This document shows positions 8,005 to 35,068 of a stretch of DNA of 35,482 nucleotides, piece after piece. Location of the stretch: NCBI GenBank assembly GCA_963805855.1, contig CAWDVW010000001.1, forward strand, positions 1 through 35,482, written 5' to 3'. Position 1 is the first letter of the stretch. The number at the start of each line of letters is the position of its first letter. The notes beneath the pieces were generated by a model that was not told where the DNA came from, did not search any database, and worked only from the letters and a program-made list of their open reading frames with translations. The translations under genes were made by a program, and so were the position numbers. The DNA is from Candidatus Dadabacteria bacterium. GTDB lineage: Bacteria > Desulfobacterota_D > UBA1144 > Nemesobacterales > CSP1-2.

Positions 8005-9804
8005 TCATGTTTCTTTAGCTTCATCTTCCATCGTAGCTAACTCATCAGATAATTCTTTTTTTAATTCGATCTGCAGATTATTCTTAAACCACACGTCCCT
8101 CTGCGGAAATGGTACGACTATTCCCTCTTGCTGCAGCTCATCCCAACCCTTGAAGTAAATTTCACTCACGATGGGATTAATCTTCCACAGCATCCTAATA
8201 TTAACCCATATCAGCAATTCAAAGATCAAAGCGCTGTCAGCCATCTGCGAAAACCAGACACCCGGCGTCGGATACTTCAGTATTTGAGAATTTTCTTTAA
8301 CAACTCCCAAAAGAATCTCCTTTACCTTCTTTGGGTCGGAGCTATAAGATACGCCAAATGGAATTCTCACCCTTATATAATATCAGATAAGCGAGTAATT
8401 CACGATCTCTTGCGTTATGAATTGCGAATTGGGAACAACAACCTCAATTCCATCGGTCGTGCTTACAATGGTACTCAGCACATCTATGCTGTTGACCCTT
8501 CCATAAATGGTCTCTAAGCTGTTTCCGATCGCCCTCCCGGCATTACCCTCTATTTCAACTATATCCCCTACCTTTAGCTTTTTACTGAAAAGTAAAATAA
8601 AACCGCTTAGATAGTTATTCATTATGCTCTGAAGACCAAAACCAACTCCTATGCCCAATGCCCCCGCTACAGGTAACAATGCCTTCCATGTAAAACCGAG
8701 GTTTGAAAGACATATAACCACAACCATTAGGAGACCCAGATTTGATACTATAGCCCTTAATGATCCCGCTTCCACCTCCTTATTCCTGCTGATGTAATAG
8801 TAGTAGACCCAGTGTTTCGCAATAACTACTAATGAAAGTAGAATGACAAAACTAAAGATCGTAGAAATTGCTGAAAATAGAGAAATACCAAAAAGATCAG
8901 TCTTAATGATGTACAGATTACTGAGATAATTAACTGCAAATCCAATATAAAAAAATACTTCAAAAACCTTGAATAGGACGTACGCCAGAATTAGTGTAAG
9001 AAAGAGGTTAATGTTATTCGATAGACCCTGATATCTTTCCTCCCGCTCTTCAATCTTCGGGATAAGATAAGTAGTAATGTATGTTTTTACAAAGGCATAA
9101 AATGTGATTGCTACAAAGCATAGAACGACACCAGTTATGTACGATGATGCGAAACCAGGCAGTTTCAAGACCCAGAGGGCAGCTATGATAATATAGATGA
9201 CGGAGAGGATGGAAATAACATTGTCTAGTACACCTTTTGTGATATCAAGCTTTTCCGGAATGATTTCCCTTATAGACCTCAGACCCCTGAACAAGATAAT
9301 GTATATCAATGCAATTACCGAGGCCTTGAATATCAATAAAAAAACCTCTTCAAGCTCGGGCGAGACAAAATACTTATCATTCAAATTCAATAGGGCCAGG
9401 CCCAAAGTAGCAATTAAAAGTAAAATATAAGAACTTAAGTTCCAGGGAAGATTATCCAAACTTAGCGGTCTTAAAAGATTACGAAACAACATGTAACCAA
9501 GATAGAGAAAAGCAATAGAATTAAATATGATTAAGGAAACGGCACCCCTTGAAACGTCTTTTGCAATATAAATTATGATCAGATATAAACCAGGAAAAAC
9601 CAAGTCATTTAATAGCAGAATCAGCGATTTATTTTTCTCTACCCTCTTGGAGATTAAATTGCGTACTTTCTTCTGCGCTACGATTAAAAATGCTAGAATT
9701 ATGACAAGGGAGGCAGCGGTGACTAACTCATGAACTAAATTTTGTTCAAGAATTTTAACAACCGCTAAGACGAAGTCATCGATCTGGGTTACAAAATCAA
9801 GCAT
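8005..9804 (-). CDS. MscS family mechanosensitive channel with extended N-terminal TM region; in-frame TGA at 8383-8385
   Basis: GALGIGVGFGLQ, KVGDIVEI, VVVPNS; ORFs 8383-9804 and 8005-8370 are in the same frame (NYSLI*YYIRVRIPFGVSY...PFPQRDV). Confidence 0.88.
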
Positions 9805-9821
9805 TATTAAAAACCATTATA

Positions 9822-10691
9822 TCAGAATTTGAAGCCGTCATTTATAAAACAATGATAAAGGATAAAATAATATGACACGGGAAATACCAAGATTAGGCTA
9901 TCAAACCTGTCCAGAATCCCTCCGTGACCGGGGAGGATCGCTCCAGAATCCTTTACACCCACAATTCTCTTTATCTTAGATTCAAATAGGTCGCCGAATA
10001 TTGCACTAATAGCCACAATCAAACCTAAAAAGAAAACCCATGAGTAAGATAGGGGAGAACCGAAAATAAGGTTCACAACTACTCCAGTGATTATCGATGA
10101 TATGAACCCTGCAATAGTTCCAACCACGGTCTTTCCTGGACTTATACTTGGCGAAAGCTTTTTCTTCCCCTTCCACTTTCCGATGTAATAAGCGCCTGTA
10201 TCATTTAAAAAGCTACAGGTGACGACGAATATAATATAGAAAAATCCCGAATCCCTTAGACCTTGATTGGATTCACCGAGAACCCTCATATATTCGCTGT
10301 CGCCGATATTCCGCAACAGGATGGCGTGACTGAGAAACCACCCGAGATATATTATCGCCAAAAGATTCACGGCTGTTTGTGCAAAGACGTCACCTTCTTG
10401 CTCTTGCATCAGCATAAGAAGAAGTGTGATAATGATGATGGCAGTAGAGACAATGCTAAAATAAACAAAACCAAAATATGCAGCCGCAGGCAAAATTACC
10501 CCGGATAAGAAGATTAGTCCCTTTTGGAGAGGGTATCCTTTTTTTTTTAACATAACAATGAGCTCAAACTCTGCCATAAGAATCACTATTAGAAAGAGTA
10601 AGAGAAACCATACTCCTCCAAGATAGAAAATTAAATAGAGAATGGGAATCCCGATTACGGAGGTTAGAATTCTCTGGTAAGGTTTGTCCAT
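9822..10691 (-). CDS. cdsA: Phosphatidate cytidylyltransferase
   Basis: DTGAY, SPSISPGKT, GDLFESKIKR..GVKDSG.ILPGHGGILDRFDS signature. Confidence 0.95.
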   Translation of the reverse strand: MDKPYQRILTSVIGIPILYLIFYLGGVWFLLLFLIVILMAEFELIVMLKKKGYPLQKGLIFLSGVILPAAAYFGFVYFSIVSTAIIIITLLLMLMQEQEGDVFAQTAVNLLAIIYLGWFLSHAILLRNIGDSEYMRVLGESNQGLRDSGFFYIIFVVTCSFLNDTGAYYIGKWKGKKKLSPSISPGKTVVGTIAGFISSIITGVVVNLIFGSPLSYSWVFFLGLIVAISAIFGDLFESKIKRIVGVKDSGAILPGHGGILDRFDSLILVFPVSYYFILYHCFINDGFKF

Positions 10692-10752
10692 TGCAGTTAA
10701 GTGGATATAATTTCCATGATAATAAGGGCTATTGCAAATCGAAATTTTCCAG

Positions 10753-11556
10753 ATGAGTGATCTAGAATTAATCCATAACCCGAATAACAGCGCAATGAAA
10801 GTCGCAGTCTTGCTCTCTGGATCTGGTACAAATTTCTTGGCGATTTATGATGAGCAATTAAGATTGGAAAGATTGCGGGTGGGGAACTATGGGAAGGTCG
10901 AGGTAGTTTTCACGAACGTTCCAAACTGTGAGGGGGCGGATAAGGCGAGAGATTTAGGTGTTCCAGTTGTAAGCCTCAGTTCTAAATCATTCTTTGAAAT
11001 CCTGAATAAAAACCCTGGTGATGCCGGGCTAAGAGACTATTACGATGCGGCAACAATTTCCCTAATTGAAGGCATATGCAAACCCGATATCGTGGTGCTT
11101 GCGGGTTACAGGAGACGAATCGGAGGTCTATTCTTAAACCATTATAAGAATCGAATTGTAAACCTGTTCCCTGGAGATGTCACAAAAAGGTATCTGGTCA
11201 GAGGAGTCGATGCATCGATTCAAGCTTTACGGGCTGGCGAAGGTTATATCAAATGTACGGTATACCTAGAGAAACAGGGTGAGCGATTCGGCCCATCAAT
11301 TGTTCAATCAAAACCCATTTCCTTGGAAGGGTATGAAGAACGAGACGCGCCAAGAATGCAGGAGAAGATCAGAAACGAAGGAGAATGGAGAATCTATCCC
11401 TTCGTCGTGCACCAACTCATTGCTAAAGGAAGATTAGGAATTGACGAGAATGATAATCTATACATCGATGGGAAAAGAATGCCAGAGAGAGGATACCAAT
11501 TTAAAGACACTGATTTAAACTCAATTAGCCTAAAACGCGATTCAAACAAAGAATAA
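10753..11556 (+). CDS. PurN-like formyltransferase-fold protein with a non-canonical active site
   Basis: VAVLLSGSGTNF, VFTN, DIVVLAGY, GP.IVQ and E..IYP motifs; NLFP replaces NIHP. Confidence 0.75.
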   Translation: MSDLELIHNPNNSAMKVAVLLSGSGTNFLAIYDEQLRLERLRVGNYGKVEVVFTNVPNCEGADKARDLGVPVVSLSSKSFFEILNKNPGDAGLRDYYDAATISLIEGICKPDIVVLAGYRRRIGGLFLNHYKNRIVNLFPGDVTKRYLVRGVDASIQALRAGEGYIKCTVYLEKQGERFGPSIVQSKPISLEGYEERDAPRMQEKIRNEGEWRIYPFVVHQLIAKGRLGIDENDNLYIDGKRMPERGYQFKDTDLNSISLKRDSNKE

Positions 11557-11629
11557 TAATATTCGAAAATTGTAATATCAGTCTGGGATACAATCCTAAT
11601 AAAACAAAAAAATTTATAACGAGGTGACA

Positions 11630-11938
11630 ATGGCAAATTTAATAGAGGTAGCCAAAATAAATGAAATCAAACCGGGAGAGGGGAAACTTATTGAGGTCGA
11701 GGACCATGAAATTGCCCTTTTTAACTGTGAGGGGAGCTACTATGCAATCGACAACACGTGTACTCACCAGGGTGGACCGCTGTGTGAAGGAGACCTTGAG
11801 GGAAATAAAGTCATCTGCCCATGGCATGGAGCAGAGTTCGATGTAAAAACCGGTAACGTAGTTGCTCCCCCCGCAGAGGAATCAGTTAAATCCTATAGAG
11901 TCGACGTAGATGGTGATTCAATAAAAATAGAAATATGA
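11630..11938 (+). CDS. Rieske [2Fe-2S] ferredoxin
   Basis: CTH...CPWH ligands, FDVKTG; GAGG RBS. Confidence 0.93.
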   Translation: MANLIEVAKINEIKPGEGKLIEVEDHEIALFNCEGSYYAIDNTCTHQGGPLCEGDLEGNKVICPWHGAEFDVKTGNVVAPPAEESVKSYRVDVDGDSIKIEI

Positions 11939-13389: not shown

Positions 13390-13902
13390 ATGAGCAGCAA
13401 TTCAAGCATGGCGTCCAGGAGTCGAAAGCCTTTATTTCTTCAGGAAGCTGATGGAAAGGGACAAGGGGTTTTTACGCTGGGGCGTTATGAAGCGGGGGAG
13501 AAGATACTTTGTTTTAAAGGAAATATAGTCGACCTTGATGAGGTTGAGGACCACGGGAAGTATCTCCAGGTCGGAAAGCACCTTTTTCTTGGTTCATCCG
13601 GTGAAATAGACGATTTTGTAAACCATTCCTGTGAGCCAAACTGCGGTGTTGCTCTAAGGCAAGGGAACATACTACTCATTTCAATACGAGAAATTCAACC
13701 AAACGAAGAATTGACCTTTGATTATTCGACCTGGATGGCATACGACTACTGGGAAATGGATTGCATATGCGGAAATACCCACTGTCGTAAGAAGATTAAG
13801 GATTTCAAATATCTTCGTAGAGAATTGAGGCAAAAATATATTGATCTCAATGTAGTCCCCGATTATGTTCTCAGGGAAATTCAATTTCAAGTGAAGTGCT
13901 AG
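13390..13902 (+). CDS. SET domain protein-lysine methyltransferase with post-SET motif
   Basis: GKGQGVF, NHSCEPNC, EELTFDY, CICGNTHC. Confidence 0.92.
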   Translation: MSSNSSMASRSRKPLFLQEADGKGQGVFTLGRYEAGEKILCFKGNIVDLDEVEDHGKYLQVGKHLFLGSSGEIDDFVNHSCEPNCGVALRQGNILLISIREIQPNEELTFDYSTWMAYDYWEMDCICGNTHCRKKIKDFKYLRRELRQKYIDLNVVPDYVLREIQFQVKC

Positions 13903-16321: not shown

Positions 16322-17206
16322 ATGGTGAAAGCACAAGAACTTAGGGCAATCTTATCAAGACCATATTCTCTGGTGGTGCCGGGGATCTACGATTGTCTTA
16401 GTGCTAAAATAGCTGAGAAAACTGGTTTCGAGGTCATTTTTACAAGCGGATTTGGTATTTCAGCATCAACCCTCGGCCTTCCTGATTTCGGCTTCCTTGG
16501 CGAAAACGAGATGATAGGTCGAGTAAGCCAAATTTCCAAATCCGTAAATATTCCAGTTGTTGCTGACATAGATACAGGATATGGAAACCAAATAAATGTG
16601 ATAAAAACAGTATCGGATATAGTCGATCTTGGAGTTGCCGGAGTTATTTTGGAAGACCAGATGTGGCCAAAGAAATGTGGCCACTTTGAAGGGAAGCAAA
16701 TCATAAGCATGGAAGAGCATGTTGCGAAAATACAAGCCGCGATTTACGCCAGAGGAGACAGCGGATTGGTTATTTTTGCCCGCACAGATGCGAGAGCACC
16801 GTTGGGTCTTGATGAAGCAATTCGACGGGGGCGTTCGTATCTTGATGCGGGGGCTGATGTATTATTTATCGAAGCTCCAGAGTCGGTAGAAGAACTGAGG
16901 GAGATCTCAAGTGCCTTTCCGGACGATTGGCTCTTTGCAAACATGGTTGAAGGTGGGAAAACACCGTTTCTCTCGGCTGAAGAGCTAGAAGAGCTGGGAT
17001 ACAAATTTATTGTCTTTCCTGTCTCTGCTTTATTTGCAGCGACAGAGGCCATGGAGAAATGCCTTTCTCATATCAAAAAGTACAAATCAACCGCAGGCTA
17101 TTGTGATGAGTTTTCATTGAAGGATTTTGAAAAAATTATCGACGTTCCAAAATTTCGGATGCTCGAAAAAAAATTTGGCGTAAAAAACGAGGGTTTAAAA
17201 ACGTAA
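16322..17206 (+). CDS. Isocitrate lyase / PEP mutase family enzyme (PrpB / oxaloacetate-decarboxylase-like)
   Basis: DIDTGYG, EDQ..PKKCGH, ARTDA, GAD..F.EA, NMVEGGKTP. Confidence 0.9.
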   Translation: MVKAQELRAILSRPYSLVVPGIYDCLSAKIAEKTGFEVIFTSGFGISASTLGLPDFGFLGENEMIGRVSQISKSVNIPVVADIDTGYGNQINVIKTVSDIVDLGVAGVILEDQMWPKKCGHFEGKQIISMEEHVAKIQAAIYARGDSGLVIFARTDARAPLGLDEAIRRGRSYLDAGADVLFIEAPESVEELREISSAFPDDWLFANMVEGGKTPFLSAEELEELGYKFIVFPVSALFAATEAMEKCLSHIKKYKSTAGYCDEFSLKDFEKIIDVPKFRMLEKKFGVKNEGLKT

Positions 17207-26319: not shown

Positions 26320-26955
26320 TCAATTCACCGGTTTTAAATCGAGTCGACTAAGATCATTCTCAAAATCTATCAACACCTCTCTCAAGGCCTCATTCCATCC
26401 ATTTACTAAGGTTGTTGGGGATTTAGAAATTATCTCGACATCTTTACGGTAACTCCTACTGAAAACAATGATATCCTCACCAGAATCCTCCTTAATCAAA
26501 AAGAACTGCATTGCCAGTACGGCCTTTGGTGACCCCTCATCAATATAATCGCCATATATGCTATTTATATACCCGCTCAATACATAGTCTGGGGGTATTT
26601 CACTTGGCGCGACTACGACATGTTCAAACATGTTAGATTGTGAAAACCAACCGAATACTTCCTGGGTTATAAGTGAGGCCGGCGCCTTAAAAAATTGGTT
26701 GTAAAAGTCTGATTGGTAACCATCAGGACTCACGCGGTACACAAATTCATGTCCATTGTATGCTGGAGAAACACGAAAATTACGAATTTCAAGAACCACT
26801 TGCTTAGAACTCCCATCGTAATTGCTTGATCGCGTTACATCGAAGACATAGTATCTTCTTTCTGGAAAGTTCTTTTGCAAACTCACACATCCCAAATTTA
26901 GAATCAACAGATAAAAGAAAATTAAAAAAATATATCCGCAGTGTTTAGGTGTCAT
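26320..26955 (-). CDS. ABC-type transport auxiliary lipoprotein (PqiC-like)
   Basis: Lipobox NLGC, YR....Y.SDFY..F..P; overlaps the mlaD stop by 4 nt. Confidence 0.85.
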   Translation of the reverse strand: MTPKHCGYIFLIFFYLLILNLGCVSLQKNFPERRYYVFDVTRSSNYDGSSKQVVLEIRNFRVSPAYNGHEFVYRVSPDGYQSDFYNQFFKAPASLITQEVFGWFSQSNMFEHVVVAPSEIPPDYVLSGYINSIYGDYIDEGSPKAVLAMQFFLIKEDSGEDIIVFSRSYRKDVEIISKSPTTLVNGWNEALREVLIDFENDLSRLDLKPVN

Positions 26956-27923
26956 TTAGGTGCCTCGTTCAACTCTGGTGGAGGATTGCCAAAAAGAATC
27001 CACGACGGATAATTATTTGCAATATTCATGAACCGCCTAAGATCTTCCGAAATTACAGAAATATTCTCAAGAATAGTTGTAATTTCTTCTTGACGACTTG
27101 ATACCAAGCTATCAAACCTATTCAGGATGGTATTCAACTTAGACACCACATCTGGCAAATCCTCAGAACCAGTCTTTATATCCTCTAGGGTTCCACTAAG
27201 ATTCTTCAGACTCTGTCTTAATTCTTCACTACCGGTTAAAGAATTCAAATTTGCCGCGACCTTATTAAATTGCAATATTGTCTTCTGGAGATCCTGGCTC
27301 ACGCTAGCAATCTTCGCATCCTCGACCGACTTTGTCACAGCCTGTAACAGATCTTGAATATCATCCGCAATTTGCTGAAAGTTAATCTTATTTATGCTTG
27401 TTGTAAGCTCGGTAATTGAATCAGTAATGGTAGTGATCGTGCTCGGAGCAGATGGTATGTAAAAGTATTTGGGTTTCCAATCTATTTCATAGCGAGGATA
27501 CTTGTCTGGCTCAAAGTAAACGCCGTTTAAGAAGGCTACGCCTGTAACACCCTGCGACGACAGTTGAAGCCTGAATCCCTTTTCTACCTGCTTTCCCGCC
27601 CTTTCAGCAAATTCCTCTTCAGTGTCCACGTCCTTGCCTAATGTATCCGGGAAGTAGTAACCTCTGACAATTATATAATTTAGGTTAGTTTTGTATATCT
27701 GTCTTACAAAGGTTATCTTGCTTACCGATCCGACTTGCACTCCCAGAACCTTTACCGGAGCACCTTCTGTCAGCCCCTGAACGGACTGGTCAAAATACGT
27801 CTCAAAGTAGATCTTCTTGCGAAAATATTTGCTTCCGCCAAAAACTATAATACCTATAACTAGAATCACCAATCCGATGATTACAAAGACGCCGACTTTG
27901 AAGAAATTGGGTTTTCTACTCAT
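26952..27923 (-). CDS. mlaD: MlaD/MCE family protein with long helical C-terminus
   Basis: N-terminal TM, SVQGL.GAPV..GVQVG.V, helical tail ending P..ILFG. Confidence 0.88.
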   Translation of the reverse strand: MSRKPNFFKVGVFVIIGLVILVIGIIVFGGSKYFRKKIYFETYFDQSVQGLTEGAPVKVLGVQVGSVSKITFVRQIYKTNLNYIIVRGYYFPDTLGKDVDTEEEFAERAGKQVEKGFRLQLSSQGVTGVAFLNGVYFEPDKYPRYEIDWKPKYFYIPSAPSTITTITDSITELTTSINKINFQQIADDIQDLLQAVTKSVEDAKIASVSQDLQKTILQFNKVAANLNSLTGSEELRQSLKNLSGTLEDIKTGSEDLPDVVSKLNTILNRFDSLVSSRQEEITTILENISVISEDLRRFMNIANNYPSWILFGNPPPELNEAPK

Positions 27924-27959
27924 ATTTAGTGTCCATCAATGTAAACGAACAATATTAAA

Positions 27960-28733
27960 TCAGGCCGCTGCCTCCGATTCGACTTCCCTGTTAAAGAACT
28001 GACGGACCCAGGGGTTATCGGAATGGTCACGCAGGTAATGGGGTTCGCCAGTAGCGACAATTCCCTTTACCCGTTTATCCAGCATGATGACTCGATCTGC
28101 TATAGTGTATATACTTGGCAACTCGTGTGTTACGACAACAAACGTTATCTTAAGGCTACGTGCAAGTCTTAGAATTAGCTGGTCAAGTTCAGCAGACGTG
28201 ATAGGATCCAGTCCGGCGGAAGGCTCATCCAGAAAAAGAATGAGCGGATCGAGTGCCATTGCCCTTGCTAACGCACCACGCTTCTGCATCCCTCCACTAA
28301 GCTCAGAAGGCATTTTATTTTCAGAGCCCGAAAGCCCCACCAGCTTGAGTTTCATGAGAGAGATTAGATCCATCGCTTCAGGCGAAAGATCTGTATATTC
28401 CTCAAGGGGCAACCGAACATTCTCAAGTATGGTCATGGAGCCGAAAAGCGCCCCACTCTGATAGGCAACACCGATCTTCTTTAAAACTCTGAGAAGATCG
28501 TCTCCTTCGGCAGTGGCAATGTCATCTCCATCAATAATAATTTTACCTGCTGCAGGTTCATATAGTCCTATCATGTGCTTCAGTACCGTACTCTTCCCGC
28601 ATCCGGAGCCACCAAGAATCACAAAAACCTCCCCAGGATAAACATCGAAGGATATGTTATCTATTATCACATTCCCCGCATAAGCAGCGGTAAAATTTTC
28701 AACTCTAATAATTGGATCCTTTTCTCCACCCAT
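27960..28733 (-). CDS. mlaF: MlaF-like ABC ATPase
   Basis: GGSGCGKS, LSGGMQKR, LDEPSAGLDP, VTH. Confidence 0.92.
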   Translation of the reverse strand: MGGEKDPIIRVENFTAAYAGNVIIDNISFDVYPGEVFVILGGSGCGKSTVLKHMIGLYEPAAGKIIIDGDDIATAEGDDLLRVLKKIGVAYQSGALFGSMTILENVRLPLEEYTDLSPEAMDLISLMKLKLVGLSGSENKMPSELSGGMQKRGALARAMALDPLILFLDEPSAGLDPITSAELDQLILRLARSLKITFVVVTHELPSIYTIADRVIMLDKRVKGIVATGEPHYLRDHSDNPWVRQFFNREVESEAAA

Positions 28734-28739
28734 CTCAAT

Positions 28740-29885
28740 TTAAATTCCCAGGAAGTAGTAAATAACTCCAAAAATACCGTCTACAAATATAATCAAAACA
28801 AGGCCAATAACAACCGCGGAGGTAGTAGAATCTCCAACCGCCGATGCGCCGGTCTTGGTTCTGAGCCCCTCCATACACCCGACACCCGCAATAATAAATG
28901 CGAAAACAACCGATTTGACGAGGCCTGCCAGAAGCATAACAAAGGTTGCGGCAGATACTATCTCATTGACATATGTGACAACAGTAAACCCTAGAGAAAG
29001 CATGACTACCAATCCGCCTATGAGACCAAATAGATTTCCAAAAATCGTAAGCACCGGTATCATCACGAGTGACGCCAATAACCTCGGGACAACTAGAAAT
29101 CGAACCGGTTCAAGCCCCATTGTGGTGAGCGCATCGATCTCTTCGTTTACCTTCATAGTGCCAAGCTCCGCCGCAAAGGCTGACCCGCTTCGGCCATTAA
29201 CCACCCAGGCTGTCATTAGAGGCCCAAGTTCTTTAAACATGGCAATTACAATAAGGTCTGCCACGAATAACTGTGCGCCGTATTGCTCCATCGGTATCGC
29301 GGATTGAAAAGCCATCACAAGGCCTATAAGAAAACACACGAGGGCCACTATAGTAAATGCATTAACACCAATCAATTCAGCGGTAATTAAAAAATCTTTC
29401 CATCGAACACTTCTAGGATTAAGCATTGCATAAAATAGAGCAACCACGATTTCCCCTAGAAATGATATGTTAGCCGCCATCCCGCGAAACATATCAATTG
29501 TTTGCCTGCCAACATTCACAAAAACGTTCGATGCTTCAAGCTCCTCTATATCAGCTTGGACGAAGTCAGCGGGTTTGAATTGGTCAAATAATTGTTGAAA
29601 CTCCCCCGCAAGTCCTCGAATTTCAAACACTCCGCCCCTTTCGGCTTGTTTTAATTGAAGATTAAACAAAAAGCCAATACCAGTGCCGTCACAATAATTT
29701 ACCCCGGAAGCATCCACAATCACCCGCTTAGGCGAAGATTTATCAATCGAAAGTAATGCCTGTCGCCAAACTTTTCCGGTCGAACTCGAATCAAGTCTTC
29801 CATTTATGATTAGCTTAAGAGAGCCTTCCTCGGTAATATCCGTATGGAGAGTGACAGGATTAATTCCTCGCAACGCATTATTCAT
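28740..29885 (-). CDS. mlaE: MlaE permease with N-terminal STAS domain
   Basis: STAS-like N-terminus (DASGVNYCDGTG); ELGP, GRSGSAFAAELGTMKVNEEIDAL, VG.STT. Confidence 0.92.
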   Translation of the reverse strand: MNNALRGINPVTLHTDITEEGSLKLIINGRLDSSSTGKVWRQALLSIDKSSPKRVIVDASGVNYCDGTGIGFLFNLQLKQAERGGVFEIRGLAGEFQQLFDQFKPADFVQADIEELEASNVFVNVGRQTIDMFRGMAANISFLGEIVVALFYAMLNPRSVRWKDFLITAELIGVNAFTIVALVCFLIGLVMAFQSAIPMEQYGAQLFVADLIVIAMFKELGPLMTAWVVNGRSGSAFAAELGTMKVNEEIDALTTMGLEPVRFLVVPRLLASLVMIPVLTIFGNLFGLIGGLVVMLSLGFTVVTYVNEIVSAATFVMLLAGLVKSVVFAFIIAGVGCMEGLRTKTGASAVGDSTTSAVVIGLVLIIFVDGIFGVIYYFLGI

Positions 29886-30196
29886 GAAGATGAAACCCCA
29901 AACTTAGCTTGAGTCAGTATAGTACTTTTTGCAAAATCAATGAATCCTGCATTCAGAAAATCAGGCTTTAGTATAACCAAAGCCCTTGATACCACAAGAG
30001 ATTTTGGAAGCAATTCAAGGAAGTCTTAATAACTGTGTTGAGGGTTTCAATCCCCTTAATATGCGCAGGATGTTCTTATATCCCGCGTATTGCAATCGAT
30101 CTGATGCCAACTGCAGCGCATAAAGTTATGTATGGGGTATAAATCTTGAAGTGGAAAACTATTTTGAATTTATATGATGTAACAAATTACCTAGAC

Positions 30197-30222
30197 CCTC
30201 GGGAGGCCAGGACCTCCCGAGG
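30197..30222 (-). terminator. Hairpin downstream of the SYLF gene
   Basis: Perfect 10-bp stem CCTCGGGAGG-CCAGGA-CCTCCCGAGG; U-tract is weak. Confidence 0.55.
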
Positions 30223-30244
30223 TTTACATTTCTTTATCACGGTG

Positions 30245-30946
30245 CTATTTACTTGGGGAAAATTCCTTTACCGCATCGGTGAAAACCATCAAAGCCGGAG
30301 GGGTCTCATTATTTTCCAACAAGGCTTGAAGGGGTGTCATCTCCTTGTTGTAGGCTTTATTATTGGCATCCTTATTAAACTGGATTGAAAGTGACCCTAC
30401 ATCAAGGCCCGCAAATACACCGCCCGTGGCTCTAGCATAAGTATAAAATGGTGCTTTAGTACTCGCGCCACCAGTACCAGTTTGTGCTCCCGTGCTGCCA
30501 GCCACTGCGGTTGCGCTGCCTCCACCCAGAGTAACTGCGCCCGAAGTCAACGCATTTTCCGCCATTTCGTTCATGGCCAGTATCACTACATCGCTTGACG
30601 ATCCTCCAAGCGAAATACCAACGCTCGGACCTTTAGCGTTATAAAAAGCCGGTGCTCCCCACTCGCCGGTATCTGCATGACGACAGATCGCAAAACCTTT
30701 CCCGCTCTTATAACCTACAGCTACGCTAACCTTTACTAAGCCTGGAATCACAACGATACACTGTGCCTCTTGTAAAACAGAGGCAGGAATCTGCTTGTCA
30801 GGGGGCTGGTTCATAAAAGCCTTCAAAACATTAGCGGCTCCCTGTGCCCTTTTATCAACCTCTTGTGCCCAGGAAATATTGATTAAACTCAATCCCACCA
30901 CAATAACAATGGCGAAAGCCATAATAAAAGTAGATCTAAACTTCAT
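30245..30946 (-). CDS. Exported lipid-binding SYLF (Ysc84-like) domain protein
   Basis: Signal peptide, IP..VL..A.C..VIP, G.G...CR, W.APAF, G.FAG, N...Y motifs. Confidence 0.88.
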   Translation of the reverse strand: MKFRSTFIMAFAIVIVVGLSLINISWAQEVDKRAQGAANVLKAFMNQPPDKQIPASVLQEAQCIVVIPGLVKVSVAVGYKSGKGFAICRHADTGEWGAPAFYNAKGPSVGISLGGSSSDVVILAMNEMAENALTSGAVTLGGGSATAVAGSTGAQTGTGGASTKAPFYTYARATGGVFAGLDVGSLSIQFNKDANNKAYNKEMTPLQALLENNETPPALMVFTDAVKEFSPSK

Positions 30947-31123
30947 CGTAAGTACCTCCTCAAAAATGTTGGTTTATTTTTTACCCCTAATGGAACTCTA
31001 AAACTTCGTAAGGATACGTCTCCTGCTACATATGTCAACCCTTCGCACATGATCGAATGTCGAAAATGAGTCAACTTGAAACCCTAATTTTTTTCGTATA
31101 TCTTACCTACTCTGGTATAAGTG

Positions 31124-31501
31124 ATGAAAAATATTATCATAGTAACTCTGATCCTGTGCGCGAATGCTCGGACATCTCATATTTCTCAGTTCACGAACTT
31201 CGTAAAGACCGCTATTGGATTTTATGACCTATCAATCAGAGACAACAATCTTCAGGGATTCAAGCTACAAAAATCGCATCAATTAGTTCAAGAAACTTTT
31301 CCTGAGGAAGAACCTTACGCGGAGGAAGAAGGCCCGGCACCGCCCGAAGAACCATATGTTCCAGAAGAAGAGCCCTATTTACCCGAGGAAGATCCTAACC
31401 TGCCCGAACAGCCCTACATACCCGAGGAAGAACCACTTTTACCAGATGAGCAGCCGTCATTGCCAGAGCAGCCATTCGAAGGGGAACCAGAGAGCTGGTG
31501 A
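31124..31501 (+). CDS. Hypothetical protein with Pro/Glu-rich (PEEEPY) repeat tail
   Basis: Hydrophobic N-terminus; repeats conserved at protein level with varied codons; TTGAAA-17-TATCTT promoter at 31076-31104. Confidence 0.6.
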   Translation: MKNIIIVTLILCANARTSHISQFTNFVKTAIGFYDLSIRDNNLQGFKLQKSHQLVQETFPEEEPYAEEEGPAPPEEPYVPEEEPYLPEEDPNLPEQPYIPEEEPLLPDEQPSLPEQPFEGEPESW

Positions 31502-31831
31502 GGCCCCTGAATCTCCAAAACGACCTGAGTAACTGAAGCTGTCCACGTAGTTGCTTGTTAACTCACCGCAAGCACATACGGGAGATTATTTGACCGCTAT
31601 GAATCATAACGTTGAAAACCTCAAACTGGCTTAAAAGTGAAAAGAATTGAAGTTTATTTAGCGATTACCTTTGTATCAATAACACGTCTTATTAATTTAT
31701 TTTATTTCTCCGATAATTAGGAGCCATCATCCGGCACAATTCATAGAAAGAGCAATGGATTCAAACTTGCCTTTGTTATATAATCCGTTTCAATTAATTA
31801 AAGAACCTTTTTCTTTCTCCATCTTCCATAA

Positions 31832-34800
31832 ATGAAAGCAACGAAAAAATTGTTTCTTTTGTTCATAGCAGCATTGGCAGTCGTTCTAGTCATTATAATT
31901 TTCGGCCTCTTGTTCCTGTCCCATTTTGTCAATCTCGATTCAACCAAGAATACGATCATAACTAAAGTTTCCGAAAAAACTGGTGCTCAAGTAAATTATG
32001 CAGACTTTGATTTCTCGTTATTTCCTCTTCCTCACGTGACAATTCGCGAAGGAAATTTTCTCTTCGATCAGAAAACAGGTGGAAGCTTTGAAAAACTGTC
32101 AGTGTATCCTGAATTGCTGCCTTTATTTAAAGGTAAGGTGAAACTTCACAGGGTCAGTATCTCATCCCCAGAGATAACATTAAGTCTGCCAGAGAGGGCC
32201 GAGGTAAAAGACAGCACAAAAATACAATTTTCGATTAATGAACTATGGAAGGTTATTACTTTGGGCTTGGTTTCAATGGCGTCAAAAGCGCCTGATCTGG
32301 TTTTCGAAGTCAACGATGGACTAATAAACCTTACCAAAAATGACGAAACTGTATTTTGGTTCAGGGACATCGAGGCACGCATCGCAGTACCATCAGATGA
32401 AAGAAACATCGCAATTACATGTACATCTAATCTTGGTGAAACGGTATCAATAACGGGTTCGGTAAATCTAAAGGAATTCGCTGGCGACGGGCGGATTAGA
32501 CTCCGTAAATTCCGACCGGAAGCACTTTATAATTACCTTCTACCGACCTCGAGTCATCGAATTCCCGATTCAATAATCAACTTGGACATTAACTTTGAGG
32601 CAAATGGCCAAAAATACTTAAACGCACTGTTTACTGGCTCAATTCCGAAACTCTTCCTCCAAGATCAAAAAAGCAAATTTCCTTTTAGGGCAAGCAACAT
32701 AGAAGGTGATTTCCAAATTGCTGATGGTAAGACTAGTATTTCATTTGAGAACATAAATCTCGATAATCCGCAGCTAAACCTGAAGGCACGCTTTCTAGAA
32801 GATAGAACAACAAATAGGGTGGAATTAGAAATTCAGGCAAAGGAAGTCGATATTAAATCGGTTCGAGAGGCGGCCCTTTTCTTAGTTGGACGATATCGTA
32901 GTACGCAGAAGATTTTTGAAATCATTAAAGCAGGATATTCACCTCTAGCAGAGTTTTCATCGAACGCCAATTCGATTTCTGAAATAGGAAAAGAAGAAAA
33001 TTTTATAATTAAGGGCCAAATGCAAAATGCGGAGATATACATTCCGCAGGCTGATCTGGATTTAAACGATGCCAGTGGATATGCCATCGTTTCAAACGGT
33101 ATATTGGAAGGTGAAAATCTTGAAGGTAGTGCGGGGAACTCTCGAGGCTACAATGGGAATCTCAAATTAGGTCTTAGTCGAAAAAATGACATATTTAAAC
33201 TCGATGTCCTGATCAATGGTGATCTTTCGGAACTCCCACCATATCTATTACGCTATATTAAAAATGAAAACGTTAGGAAAGAGATTTCTCTTATCGACAA
33301 TTTAAGCGGAAATGCGCAGGCGCACTTAATTTTAGGCGATACGAAAACTTCTATAAAAACCAAGATCGAAGCACGGAATATTAGCCTCTCGGCTAACTAC
33401 ACTCGAATACCCTACCCTATTGAAATAAAAGGGGGGCAATTCTTATTCGATAAGAATAGGATTGATCTGAAGAAATTGGGTTTAAGTTTGGCAAAATCAA
33501 ACCTTTCAGGCCTTTCTGGATGGATAGACTGGCACAAAACGACTGATTTCAGCATTCAGGCCGATGAGTCCAACATCTTCCTTAATGAAGCAATTTCGTG
33601 GCTGTCATCAACTGACTACATTGCCAGTTACACTAAGTACCTGCGACCCTTCAATGGTTCGCTAGTTTTCTCTTTATTGAACGTCCAAGGCCCCGTATTA
33701 GAACCCGGAAAATGGAATGTCAAGATCAAGGGTGAAGGAGATCTGAATGGCCAGACTGGTCCAAAACTTTTTTTAGATTTTATCAGAACACCTGAAGAAT
33801 TTGTTGTTCATAACCTAACAATCGATGACGAAGGATCCCATGCCACCATAAGAGGAAAAAAGAATAAAAGGTTTTTGGAAATAAATTTTATGGGTAGTTT
33901 GAAAAGAAACACTCTGGGCAAAATCTTTTCAGACAAATTCTTATCCGATGGTTGGGTCAAAGGAAATATCAAAGCACAGTTTATGAAAGATCAATCTGCG
34001 ACATATACGGCTGAGGGAAACCTGGAAGGTGAGAATTTAATATCCCCGATGATATTGGATGAGTCTTTTAAGATAAATAGAATTTCCCTTGAAGCCGATA
34101 AAAATCAACTAAATGTGGAATCACTCGCTCTTTCATTGGGAGACACCGACTTAGCCATCGAGGGAAACGTAACCTCAACGGAAGAGGGATTTCAATTTCT
34201 GCTCGATGCTTCTTCTGATCGCATCGAATGGGAAAACATAAAAGCTGCTTTGGACAGATTTAATGGAGAAAGAAATACAAACAGTGATGATGAAAAATGG
34301 GATCTGCCACTCAAAGGTACTTTTGGGTTAAAATCTAAAAACTTTCATTACGATAGGTTCAACTGGAGCCCATTGAATGCCGAAATAAGATTCGATGATA
34401 ATATGATAAATATCATTATATCGGATGCCTCCCTGTGCGGAATTGATACACCCGGTGTCATAACAATCACCCCATCCGATAAAACTCTCGATTTCGAGCT
34501 AACCTCCAGGAAACAACAATTGAGAAAAACTATACGGTGCTTGTTTGAAAAAGAGAATATTATTTCCGGAGATTTTGACTTTGACGGTCACGTCACGGCA
34601 GGTGTCAAGAATGAGCTGTCAGCAGGGTCATTACAGGGAAATGTGGGCTTATCCGCAAGGGACGGAAGGATATACCACCAAAAACTTCTATTAGAGATCC
34701 TCGATATAATGAGAATCGTTAATTTGAGGTTGCCTGATTTTGGGCAAAAAGGGTTAGCTTATAAATCATTAGAAGTCAGAGGTAAGCTCAAAAATGGCAC

Positions 34801-35068
34801 CCTAATTCTACAGGATTCGATATTAGATAGCCCTACAATGGCTGTTGTTATTGATGGTGATGTTGACCTTGCTGACAAAAAAGTAGATCTAAAGCTAAAG
34901 GTTGCTCCAATAAAGATCATGAACTTTGCAACAACCAAAATACCGATACTAAAAAGGATCAGAGGAGGACATTTACTTTCAGTCCCTGTTCGTATAAAAG
35001 GGGATTGGGGTAACCCGGGGGGTCAAAAAAGAGGAATAGAACAGACACACTGGTCGGCTATTATCTAA
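31832..35068 (+). CDS. AsmA-like (YhdP/TamB clan) periplasm-spanning protein
   Basis: N-terminal TM and AsmA N motif (SLFPLPHV, LLPLF.G.V), beta-rich body, AsmA C motif (LQG......DGRI, G.VDL, IKG....P). Confidence 0.85.
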   Translation: MKATKKLFLLFIAALAVVLVIIIFGLLFLSHFVNLDSTKNTIITKVSEKTGAQVNYADFDFSLFPLPHVTIREGNFLFDQKTGGSFEKLSVYPELLPLFKGKVKLHRVSISSPEITLSLPERAEVKDSTKIQFSINELWKVITLGLVSMASKAPDLVFEVNDGLINLTKNDETVFWFRDIEARIAVPSDERNIAITCTSNLGETVSITGSVNLKEFAGDGRIRLRKFRPEALYNYLLPTSSHRIPDSIINLDINFEANGQKYLNALFTGSIPKLFLQDQKSKFPFRASNIEGDFQIADGKTSISFENINLDNPQLNLKARFLEDRTTNRVELEIQAKEVDIKSVREAALFLVGRYRSTQKIFEIIKAGYSPLAEFSSNANSISEIGKEENFIIKGQMQNAEIYIPQADLDLNDASGYAIVSNGILEGENLEGSAGNSRGYNGNLKLGLSRKNDIFKLDVLINGDLSELPPYLLRYIKNENVRKEISLIDNLSGNAQAHLILGDTKTSIKTKIEARNISLSANYTRIPYPIEIKGGQFLFDKNRIDLKKLGLSLAKSNLSGLSGWIDWHKTTDFSIQADESNIFLNEAISWLSSTDYIASYTKYLRPFNGSLVFSLLNVQGPVLEPGKWNVKIKGEGDLNGQTGPKLFLDFIRTPEEFVVHNLTIDDEGSHATIRGKKNKRFLEINFMGSLKRNTLGKIFSDKFLSDGWVKGNIKAQFMKDQSATYTAEGNLEGENLISPMILDESFKINRISLEADKNQLNVESLALSLGDTDLAIEGNVTSTEEGFQFLLDASSDRIEWENIKAALDRFNGERNTNSDDEKWDLPLKGTFGLKSKNFHYDRFNWSPLNAEIRFDDNMINIIISDASLCGIDTPGVITITPSDKTLDFELTSRKQQLRKTIRCLFEKENIISGDFDFDGHVTAGVKNELSAGSLQGNVGLSARDGRIYHQKLLLEILDIMRIVNLRLPDFGQKGLAYKSLEVRGKLKNGTLILQDSILDSPTMAVVIDGDVDLADKKVDLKLKVAPIKIMNFATTKIPILKRIRGGHLLSVPVRIKGDWGNPGGQKRGIEQTHWSAII

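Follow-up and report, generated by a model that had tools for sequence, protein, structure and literature searches.

We describe here a gene on the forward strand of a 35,482-nucleotide stretch of DNA from a Candidatus Dadabacteria bacterium (assembly GCA_963805855.1, contig CAWDVW010000001.1, positions 1 to 35,482), a stretch that we refer to as the window. The gene, at 10753 to 11556, encodes a protein with the fold of PurN, the glycinamide ribonucleotide (GAR) transformylase, in which both of the residues named as catalytic in that enzyme are replaced. Alignments and conservation patterns indicate a phylum-wide, selected loss and replacement of the textbook catalytic dyad, and the protein, which we call the variant, would be a re-purposed PurN paralog, most likely with a new job. 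We are fairly confident that its cleft is functional and re-tooled and that the protein is not a GAR transformylase.

A PurN-fold protein that lacks His108 and Asp144

The variant gene is real and its product has the PurN fold. As the initial annotation of this DNA had stated, the open reading frame is uninterrupted, running from ATG 10753 to TAA 11554–11556. The product matches PF00551 (Formyl_trans_N) at 58.6 bits (Pfam; cut-off 26.1) and scores 89.2 bits against the PurN equivalog TIGR00639 (NCBIfam), below that family's cut-off of 150.1. Sequence comparison gave E. coli PurN (2gar, E 1.7e-19) as the best solved relative. An AlphaFold2 model built from 29 orthologs, with a mean predicted local distance difference test score (pLDDT) of 90.9 and a predicted template modeling score (pTM) of 0.88, returned E. 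coli PurN 1cde as the top Foldseek match (E 3e-19, template modeling (TM) score 0.91 on the target) and PurN 2ywr as the top VIA-align match (Z 24.9, 213 residues, root-mean-square deviation 2.3), and all VIA-align matches to PDB representatives with Z >11 have the formyltransferase fold. The fold assignment made in the initial annotation is thereby borne out. The nearest ESM Atlas clusters carry PF00551 throughout, and no usable ESM Atlas match was obtained with PF00551 set aside. A start at TTG 10732 was also considered and dropped in favor of ATG 10753, aligned orthologs starting at M-x-x-I-E-L-I-Y-x-P. The C-terminal tail, residues 259–267, is of low confidence in the model (pLDDT <50) and poorly conserved; contigs of related strains (runs X2 and X4) carry a 1-nucleotide insertion after 11523 that would alter the last ~10 residues.

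Residues were paired with those of E. coli PurN through a HMMER alignment, with which MAFFT and BLASTP alignments against the genome's own canonical PurN agree. The gene and the segments on which the comparison turns are as follows; the motifs NLFPGD, CTVY, ERFGP, SGSGTN, LAGY and EW.IYP all lie where the initial annotation had put them.

10753..11556, + strand: PurN-fold variant gene (P0001), 267 residues, stop codon included in the coordinates
10816..10833, + strand: SGSGTN (residues 22–27), retained counterpart, by alignment, of the PurN loop for the GAR 5'-phosphate
11107..11118, + strand: YRRR (residues 119–122), replaces F-M-R-I of the PurN folate-side loop (HMMER alignment)
11161..11187, + strand: NLFPGDVTK (residues 137–145; NLFPGD, residues 137–142, is 11161–11178), Asn137 being the kept Asn106 and Phe139 at the position of His108 (alignments)
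11254..11265, + strand: CTVY (residues 168–171), Tyr171 at the position of His137 (HMMER alignment)
11281..11295, + strand: ERFGP (residues 177–181), Arg178 at Asp144 and Phe179 at Gly145 (three alignments)
11371..11388, + strand: RNEGEW (residues 207–212), Glu211 corresponding to Glu173 and Arg207 to Gln170 of E. coli PurN (HMMER alignment)

An excerpt of PMC3261824 gives His108 and Asp144 as catalytic in E. coli PurN. Both are absent from the variant, and Asn106, the phosphate loop and the equivalent of Glu173 are retained. As aligned, the change from Asp144 to Arg178 is a reversal of charge. The initial annotation had both His residues and the Asp replaced by aromatics, which holds for the two His residues (His108 to Phe139, His137 to Tyr171) and fails for the Asp, which is replaced by Arg178, Phe179 pairing with Gly145. 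It had also described LAGY as intact, which it is, but the next residues of the variant are R120-R121-R122-I123 where PurN has M89-R90-I91-L92.

We take the M89-R90-I91-L92 region to be the folate-side loop of PurN and the equivalent of SGSGTN to be the loop that binds the GAR 5'-phosphate; Glu173 presumably binds the ribose, and Asn106 we take to be the oxyanion-hole Asn. By homology with PurN structures, the changed positions (120–122, 139, 147–153 and 178–179) lie on the folate/formyl side of the cleft, and the retained SGSGTN loop, Glu211 and Asn137 are those that would grip GAR by its ribose and 5-phosphate.

The replacement residues are conserved under purifying selection

A word-indexed search yielded 239 homologs, of which the 120 listed are mostly 250–260 residues long and 55–95% identical, and carry the database names formyltransferase (family protein) or phosphoribosylglycinamide formyltransferase. 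A genome scan located 73 loci with the variant, mostly labelled Candidatus Dadabacteria or Thermodesulfobacteriota, and within the phylum 89 of 120 genomes (71 of the 94 of high quality) and 23 of 32 genera carry the variant. For residue counts we used an alignment of 147 rows comprising 70 orthologs, 35 sequences of a sister group, 28 of a wider group and 14 canonical PurN sequences, with some counts taken from 57 orthologs.

Position 178 is Arg in all 70 orthologs and Asp in 76 of the 77 outgroup rows (100% of sister, 96% of wide and 100% of canonical rows). Position 139 is Tyr in 68 orthologs and Phe in the remaining two, which are the window protein and L005, and it is His in every outgroup row (77/77, with 35 from the sister group, 28 from the wide group and 14 canonical). 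Position 171 is divided between Tyr (55/70) and Phe (15/70), and position 179 is Phe in 57/57. In the loop that follows LAGY, positions 120 and 121 are each Arg in 57/57 and position 122 is Arg in 41 and Lys in 16 of the same 57; position 120 is Arg in 100% of the clade versus Asp in the sister group or Met in 79–86% of the wide and canonical rows. N137, R207 and E211 are each found in 57/57 orthologs, and S22, G23, G25, N27, N137 and P140 are common to all four groups of the alignment. Among the 120 listed homologs, a motif pattern read residues 139/171/178/179 as Y-F-R-F in 71, Y-Y-R-F in 40 and F-Y-R-F in 6, with Y-F-H-F and F-F-R-F once each and one sequence unmatched.

Contigs from four independent public sequencing runs span codons 139, 171 and 178–179 with no listed difference. 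These contigs, together with the recurrence of the same residues in orthologs, show that the replacements do not stem from errors in sequencing or assembly, in agreement with the earlier view that they were hard to blame on sequence error.

Ratios of nonsynonymous to synonymous substitution (dN/dS) by the method of Nei and Gojobori (NG86), from a set of 313 ortholog pairs with identity of at least 72%, ranged from 0.078 to 0.345 in the 40 closest pairs, with 0.25 for the window against L005. The initial annotation had proposed, as a check, to see whether Phe, Tyr and Phe are conserved under purifying selection. Purifying selection on the replaced residues is confirmed (dN/dS of about 0.08–0.35; R178 in 70/70), and the residue set is amended: R178 (70/70) and F179 (57/57) are the fixed ones, position 139 is mostly Tyr and position 171 is Tyr or Phe. 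We further compared 37 cleft positions, set beforehand as the homologs of the ligand-binding and catalytic segments of PurN, with the other 199 core positions. Mean conservation was 0.87 in the cleft versus 0.64 elsewhere, 0 of 10000 random draws were as high, and the cleft holds 18 of the 38 invariant positions of the variant. As the cleft is thus the most conserved part of the protein, this pattern marks it as the functional center of the variant and not as a decayed pocket.

A purN duplicate left as a relic, without function or in decay, would likewise have lost its catalytic residues, and such a relic could be missing from 31 of the phylum's 120 genomes and be somewhat less conserved than canonical PurN, as the variant is. 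This explanation is countered by a frame that is open in the window and in all 70 orthologs, by dN/dS values of 0.08–0.35, by the invariance of the replacement residues in a cleft that is the most conserved part, by the presence of the gene in 23 of 32 genera, and by the 48–95% spread of identity among orthologs, which is not that of one recent clone. We find a relic barely credible.

The loss is probably derived within a long PurN-like lineage

In a profile search of 1.84 billion representatives, two exceeded 350 bits, one of them within the clade and the other, P0123, being the nearest outgroup representative at 52% identity and one that keeps both His108 and Asp144. Below 350 bits lay a long tail of PurN-like proteins of ~260–300 residues with N-V-H-P and D-x-G-P. 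A tree of 62 rows, inferred by a quick IQ-TREE search and rooted on 14 canonical PurN sequences, placed the variants in a monophyletic clade with a Shimodaira-Hasegawa-like approximate likelihood ratio test (SH-aLRT) value of 99; this clade joins a His108/Asp144-keeping sister set that includes P0123 (98), and a wide His/Asp-keeping clade (98) comes next. Proteins of the sister group have ~295 residues and the motif NVHPGDTTKGY, and those of the wider group ~260 residues and NVHPADLS. The large type of purL (TIGR01735, 1562 bits) adjoins the sister gene in 15 of the 44 metagenome loci that span 3 kb or more, in 14 of them on the same strand; no cdsA-like open reading frame, of the kind described below for the variant, was found in the sister loci.

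The variant shows the N-terminal extension of the long lineage, its P-G-D-x-T-K and G[DE]W-x-I-[YF]-P motifs and its placement in the tree, and it does not show the retained His108/Asp144 and the purine link, seen elsewhere as purL adjacency and as a PurD fusion. By sequence the variant belongs by descent to this unnamed long PurN-like lineage and differs from it in exactly the catalytic residues. Because the nearest outgroup keeps His and Asp, often beside purL, the simplest reading is an ancestor that worked as a folate-dependent GAR transformylase, with His/Asp then lost, as a derived state, at the base of the phylum's clade. According to the initial annotation, close homologs that retain His/Asp would have spoken against its proposal. 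Such homologs occur only outside the clade, with P0123 at 52% identity, and within it none of the 70 orthologs retains the pair.

Several proteins of the wide group are fusions. P0132 carries a 5-formyltetrahydrofolate cyclo-ligase (MTHFS) by NCBIfam, P0172 and P0201 are by eye of similar length and layout, and P0156 (697 residues) joins PurD to a PurN-like part; none of the four reaches the PurN equivalog cut-off.

Canonical PurN accompanies the variant and outlasts it in small genomes

Four genes of the window's genome, which comprises 3.11 Mb in 9 contigs, belong to PF00551, namely canonical PurN, PurU, Fmt and the variant. The initial annotation had raised the presence of a canonical purN or purT elsewhere as a check on its proposal. 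A canonical PurN was found (204 residues with NLHP, TVHF and VDTGP; 243.6 bits against TIGR00639, cut-off 150.1), and for PurT nothing in the genome scored over the cut-off (best 174.6 vs 502). PurU and Fmt of the same genome retain His and Asp, and PurD is present at 527.6 bits. Of the phylum's 120 genomes, 113 have a canonical PurN over the cut-off, including 93 of the 94 of high quality, and canonical PurN occurs together with the variant in all five complete genomes reached through the loci.

Two families with genomes of 0.8–1.6 Mb have no variant (0/6 and 0/19) and always have canonical PurN (6/6 and 19/19). When five such small genomes were searched with the variant profile at E <= 1e-5, only the canonical PurN locus matched. 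One closed small genome has cdsA, a TIM-barrel gene and an arginine decarboxylase gene in the order seen in a sister family that has the variant, minus the variant itself, and in another small genome cdsA directly faces the arginine decarboxylase gene. In these small genomes the variant gene has been cut cleanly out of a locus that is otherwise conserved, and since they have lost it and yet keep canonical PurN, it is an accessory gene. Its losses fit genome streamlining, which an excerpt of PMC8115339 describes for marine pelagic Dadabacteria. Apart from this, two variant-less genomes of one genus show two tandem canonical-PurN-like matches (~246 and 165 bits) at G025:C13:46827-48105 and G026:C159:796-1979.

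These findings bear on whether the variant could be a second GAR transformylase isozyme, working with an altered catalytic set (Asn-Tyr-Arg) or with another formyl donor. Such an enzyme would be expected to retain Asn106, the phosphate loop and the Glu173 equivalent, as the variant does; the sister lineage is purL-linked, and the databases name the protein phosphoribosylglycinamide formyltransferase. Yet His108 and Asp144, catalytic according to the excerpt of PMC3261824, are both replaced, the Asp by an oppositely charged Arg, and because of this, folate-dependent formyl transfer by the variant is very unlikely. Moreover, the TIGR00639 score of 89.2 stays below the cut-off of 150.1, no pur gene adjoins the variant in the window or in 72 related loci, canonical PurN coexists with it in the five complete genomes and in its own genome, and the variant has been lost where PurN was kept. 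We consider an isozyme decidedly improbable.

The variant is paired head-to-head with cdsA

The 35-kb window has no pur genes, and none adjoins the variant in the 72 related loci either; the remark of the initial annotation that no pur genes lie nearby thus holds across the window. The features next to the variant are:

9822..10691, - strand: cdsA (phosphatidate cytidylyltransferase family; PF01148, 203.9 bits), head-to-head with the variant
10684..10711, + strand: putative sigma-70 promoter-like site TTGTCC-16-TATAAT ahead of the variant gene, with a -35 element that overlaps the start codon of cdsA (10689–10691, - strand)
11624..11938, + strand: Rieske-type ferredoxin gene (PF00355, 78.4 bits), 67 nucleotides 3' of the variant and on the same strand; adjoins it only in the window's sub-clade

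The cdsA gene is the genome's only PF01148 match. It and the variant are divergent, with start codons 61 nucleotides apart. A cdsA-like open reading frame was called in 65 of 73 sources (the window and 72 loci), and the two genes stand head-to-head within 250 nucleotides in 58 of the 60 sources with both called, most gaps being 16–71 nucleotides; these neighbor counts are lower bounds, as the simple open reading frame caller lost the variant in 5 loci, and some cdsA genes, to longer antisense frames. No other neighbor of the variant is conserved phylum-wide. The rest differ by sub-clade, being the Rieske ferredoxin and a DAO-type oxidoreductase here, glutaminyl-tRNA synthetase (GlnRS) and ALAD in another, and a TIM barrel and arginine decarboxylase in a third.

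Promoter-like sites in the region are not above chance (5 vs 4.1 in shuffles). A conserved GATATAaTTTC...GCAAAT block in the cdsA-variant intergenic region (10692–10752), found in 10 of 14 aligned related loci, fits a promoter. Interlocked promoters alone could account for the unbroken pair, and for this reason we regard the pairing as a lead and no proof of shared function. In addition, cdsA does not need the variant, because small genomes keep cdsA without it. No terminator-like site was found on the + strand between the variant and the Rieske gene, the only riboswitch or RNA element match around the variant was a sub-threshold one to a small nucleolar RNA (21.8 vs 80 bits), and PADLOC gave no defense match for the variant, the Rieske protein or CdsA.

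Elsewhere in the window, a membrane-lipid transport cluster at 26320–35068 comprises a MlaD-like gene, an ABC ATPase and MlaE-STAS (26952–29885, - strand) and a YhdP/DUF748-like protein of 1078 residues (31832–35068, + strand); in other sub-clades the MlaE-STAS gene directly adjoins cdsA. A MscS-like channel gene (8005–9804, - strand) has an in-frame TGA at 8383–8385, its halves lying in one frame as a 473-residue N-terminal open reading frame (8383–9804) and a 121-residue C-terminal one (8005–8370), with the read-through ...NYSLI*YYIRVRIPF... across the stop; a pseudogene, a sequencing error or recoding may lie behind this. Other genes of the window, unrelated to the variant, encode an EF-hand repeat protein (344–985), a SET-domain protein (13390–13902) and a PEP-mutase/isocitrate-lyase-family protein (16322–17206).

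Possible functions of the cleft

We propose that between the long PurN lineage and the phylum's clade the His108-Asp144 pair would have become Tyr(Phe)-Arg and the folate-side M-R-I would have become Arg-Arg-Arg(Lys), and that the half-site for the GAR 5-phosphoribosyl moiety, made up of the SGSGTN loop, Asn106 and the equivalent of Glu173, was kept. Formyl from 10-formyltetrahydrofolate would then no longer be transferred and the partner would no longer be a reduced folate. A ribose-5-phosphate ligand is probably still bound, and it would be nucleotide-like, of the beta-N-ribosyl-5-phosphate type. Asn137, Tyr/Phe139 and Arg178, flanked by Arg120–122, may hold an anionic group such as a carboxylate or phosphate, or may stack a ring. 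The initial annotation had suggested a GAR/folate-binding sensor or a neofunctionalized enzyme. What stands of this is a selected PurN-fold protein without the catalytic residues; folate binding is open to doubt, since the substitutions (M-R-I to R-R-R, D144 to R) are concentrated where PurN takes up folate, and it is the GAR/phosphoribosyl side that is kept.

Our tentative preference is for an enzyme with a new, non-folate activity on a phosphoribosyl substrate, in an accessory and dispensable role. New enzymatic activity is slightly favored here because many invariant polar residues surround the site. The competing explanation is a non-catalytic pseudoenzyme, a PurN scaffold that binds a phosphoribosyl or nucleotide ligand, or a protein, and acts as a sensor, buffer or regulatory subunit. 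The canonical catalytic dyad is gone in 70/70 orthologs, Tyr139 can be replaced by Phe, residues of the binding type (the phosphate loop and Glu211) are retained, the gene is dispensable in streamlined genomes, and it keeps a tight, conserved head-to-head arrangement with cdsA, all of which would suit such a protein. Less easily accommodated are the invariant N137, D142, T144, R178, R120, R121, E163 and R207, which line the catalytic spot and are more typical of catalysis, and the lack of a fused DNA-binding or signaling domain, no form of 469–2000 residues, and so none longer than 468, having been found at E <= 1e-20 (weak evidence). We consider a pseudoenzyme somewhat unlikely.

Several points weigh against our preference for a new enzymatic activity. 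A protein that only binds a ligand and does not catalyze would explain these data nearly as well. The window protein itself has Phe at position 139, so a Tyr hydroxyl is not essential there, and positions 139 and 171 are both Phe in one of the 120 listed homologs. The change at His137 is not diagnostic, since the purL-linked sister group already has Phe there (35/35), and replacement of this residue alone therefore says nothing on activity. Canonical PurN is somewhat better conserved than the variant, with a mean pairwise identity of 61% vs 50% over 15 pairs from the same six genomes. The two halves of the cleft, GAR side and folate side, were assigned from the general layout of E. coli PurN structures and from the alignment, not from coordinates, and the quick-search tree has SH-aLRT values as its only support.

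A more specific version, which we think unlikely, would have the scaffold now handle a nucleotide or phosphoribosyl metabolite. The Asn-Tyr-Arg site and the tri-arginine loop would bind an anionic phosphoribosyl compound such as phosphoribosyl pyrophosphate (PRPP), a purine intermediate that is carboxylated or succinylated, or a cytidine nucleotide, and the conserved, promoter-interlocked pairing with the housekeeping gene cdsA would tie nucleotide status to the synthesis of cytidine diphosphate (CDP)-diacylglycerol, for phospholipids, within the phylum.

Whichever function the variant has, the database label phosphoribosylglycinamide formyltransferase is very probably wrong for a whole phylum-level family. 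The family would present a clean natural case in which a His/Asp dyad has been swapped for Tyr/Arg with one substrate half-site kept and, with intact purL-linked His/Asp relatives at hand, a tractable system for the re-tooling of a folate enzyme. It could reveal an unknown reaction or regulatory ligand in uncultured bacteria that are widespread in soil, sediment and the sea; if the variant is only a ligand-binding relic, the gain would mainly be a corrected annotation.

Comparison with known systems

No curated NCBIfam or Pfam family sets the variant apart, and a literature search, outside which most subscription journals lay, found nothing on the variant family or on a PurN paralog lacking His108/Asp144, nor any paper that lists the folate-site residues of PurN. 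PurN itself (1cde/2gar, TIGR00639) resembles the variant in whole-chain fold, at ~30% identity, and in the phosphate loop, Asn106, Pro109, the Glu173 equivalent and an E. coli-type C-terminal segment. The variant differs from it by His108 to Tyr/Phe, Asp144 to Arg, Gly145 to Phe, His137 to Tyr/Phe and M89-R90-I91 to R-R-R, and by a 14-residue N-terminal extension and small insertions (267 residues vs ~205); it scores below the family cut-off, lies outside any pur context and is accompanied by another copy in its genome.

PurU (3w7b, Z 20.7) and Fmt (3tqq, Z 17.5) share the fold of their catalytic domain with the variant, which has neither the ACT domain nor the C-terminal domain of Fmt. The variant reached 13.9 bits against PurU TIGR00655 (cut-off 285.95), over residues 96–138 only, and had no match to fmt at E <= 1. 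DpdN, a phage PF00551 protein that an excerpt of PMC10516641 predicts to formylate dPreQ1, is likewise a member of the PurN superfamily turned to a new substrate. However, DpdN is proposed there still to be a formyltransferase, whereas the variant has lost the formyl-transfer dyad.

The closest likeness in descent is to the long PurN-like lineage, with which the variant shares the N-terminal extension, GDW/GEW-x-I-Y-P and the C-terminal GR..D..VY.DG, as well as P-G-D-x-T-K with the sister group. That lineage keeps His108 and Asp144, and its sister group is linked to purL in 15 of 44 loci; the variant has neither the dyad nor the purL link and adjoins cdsA instead.

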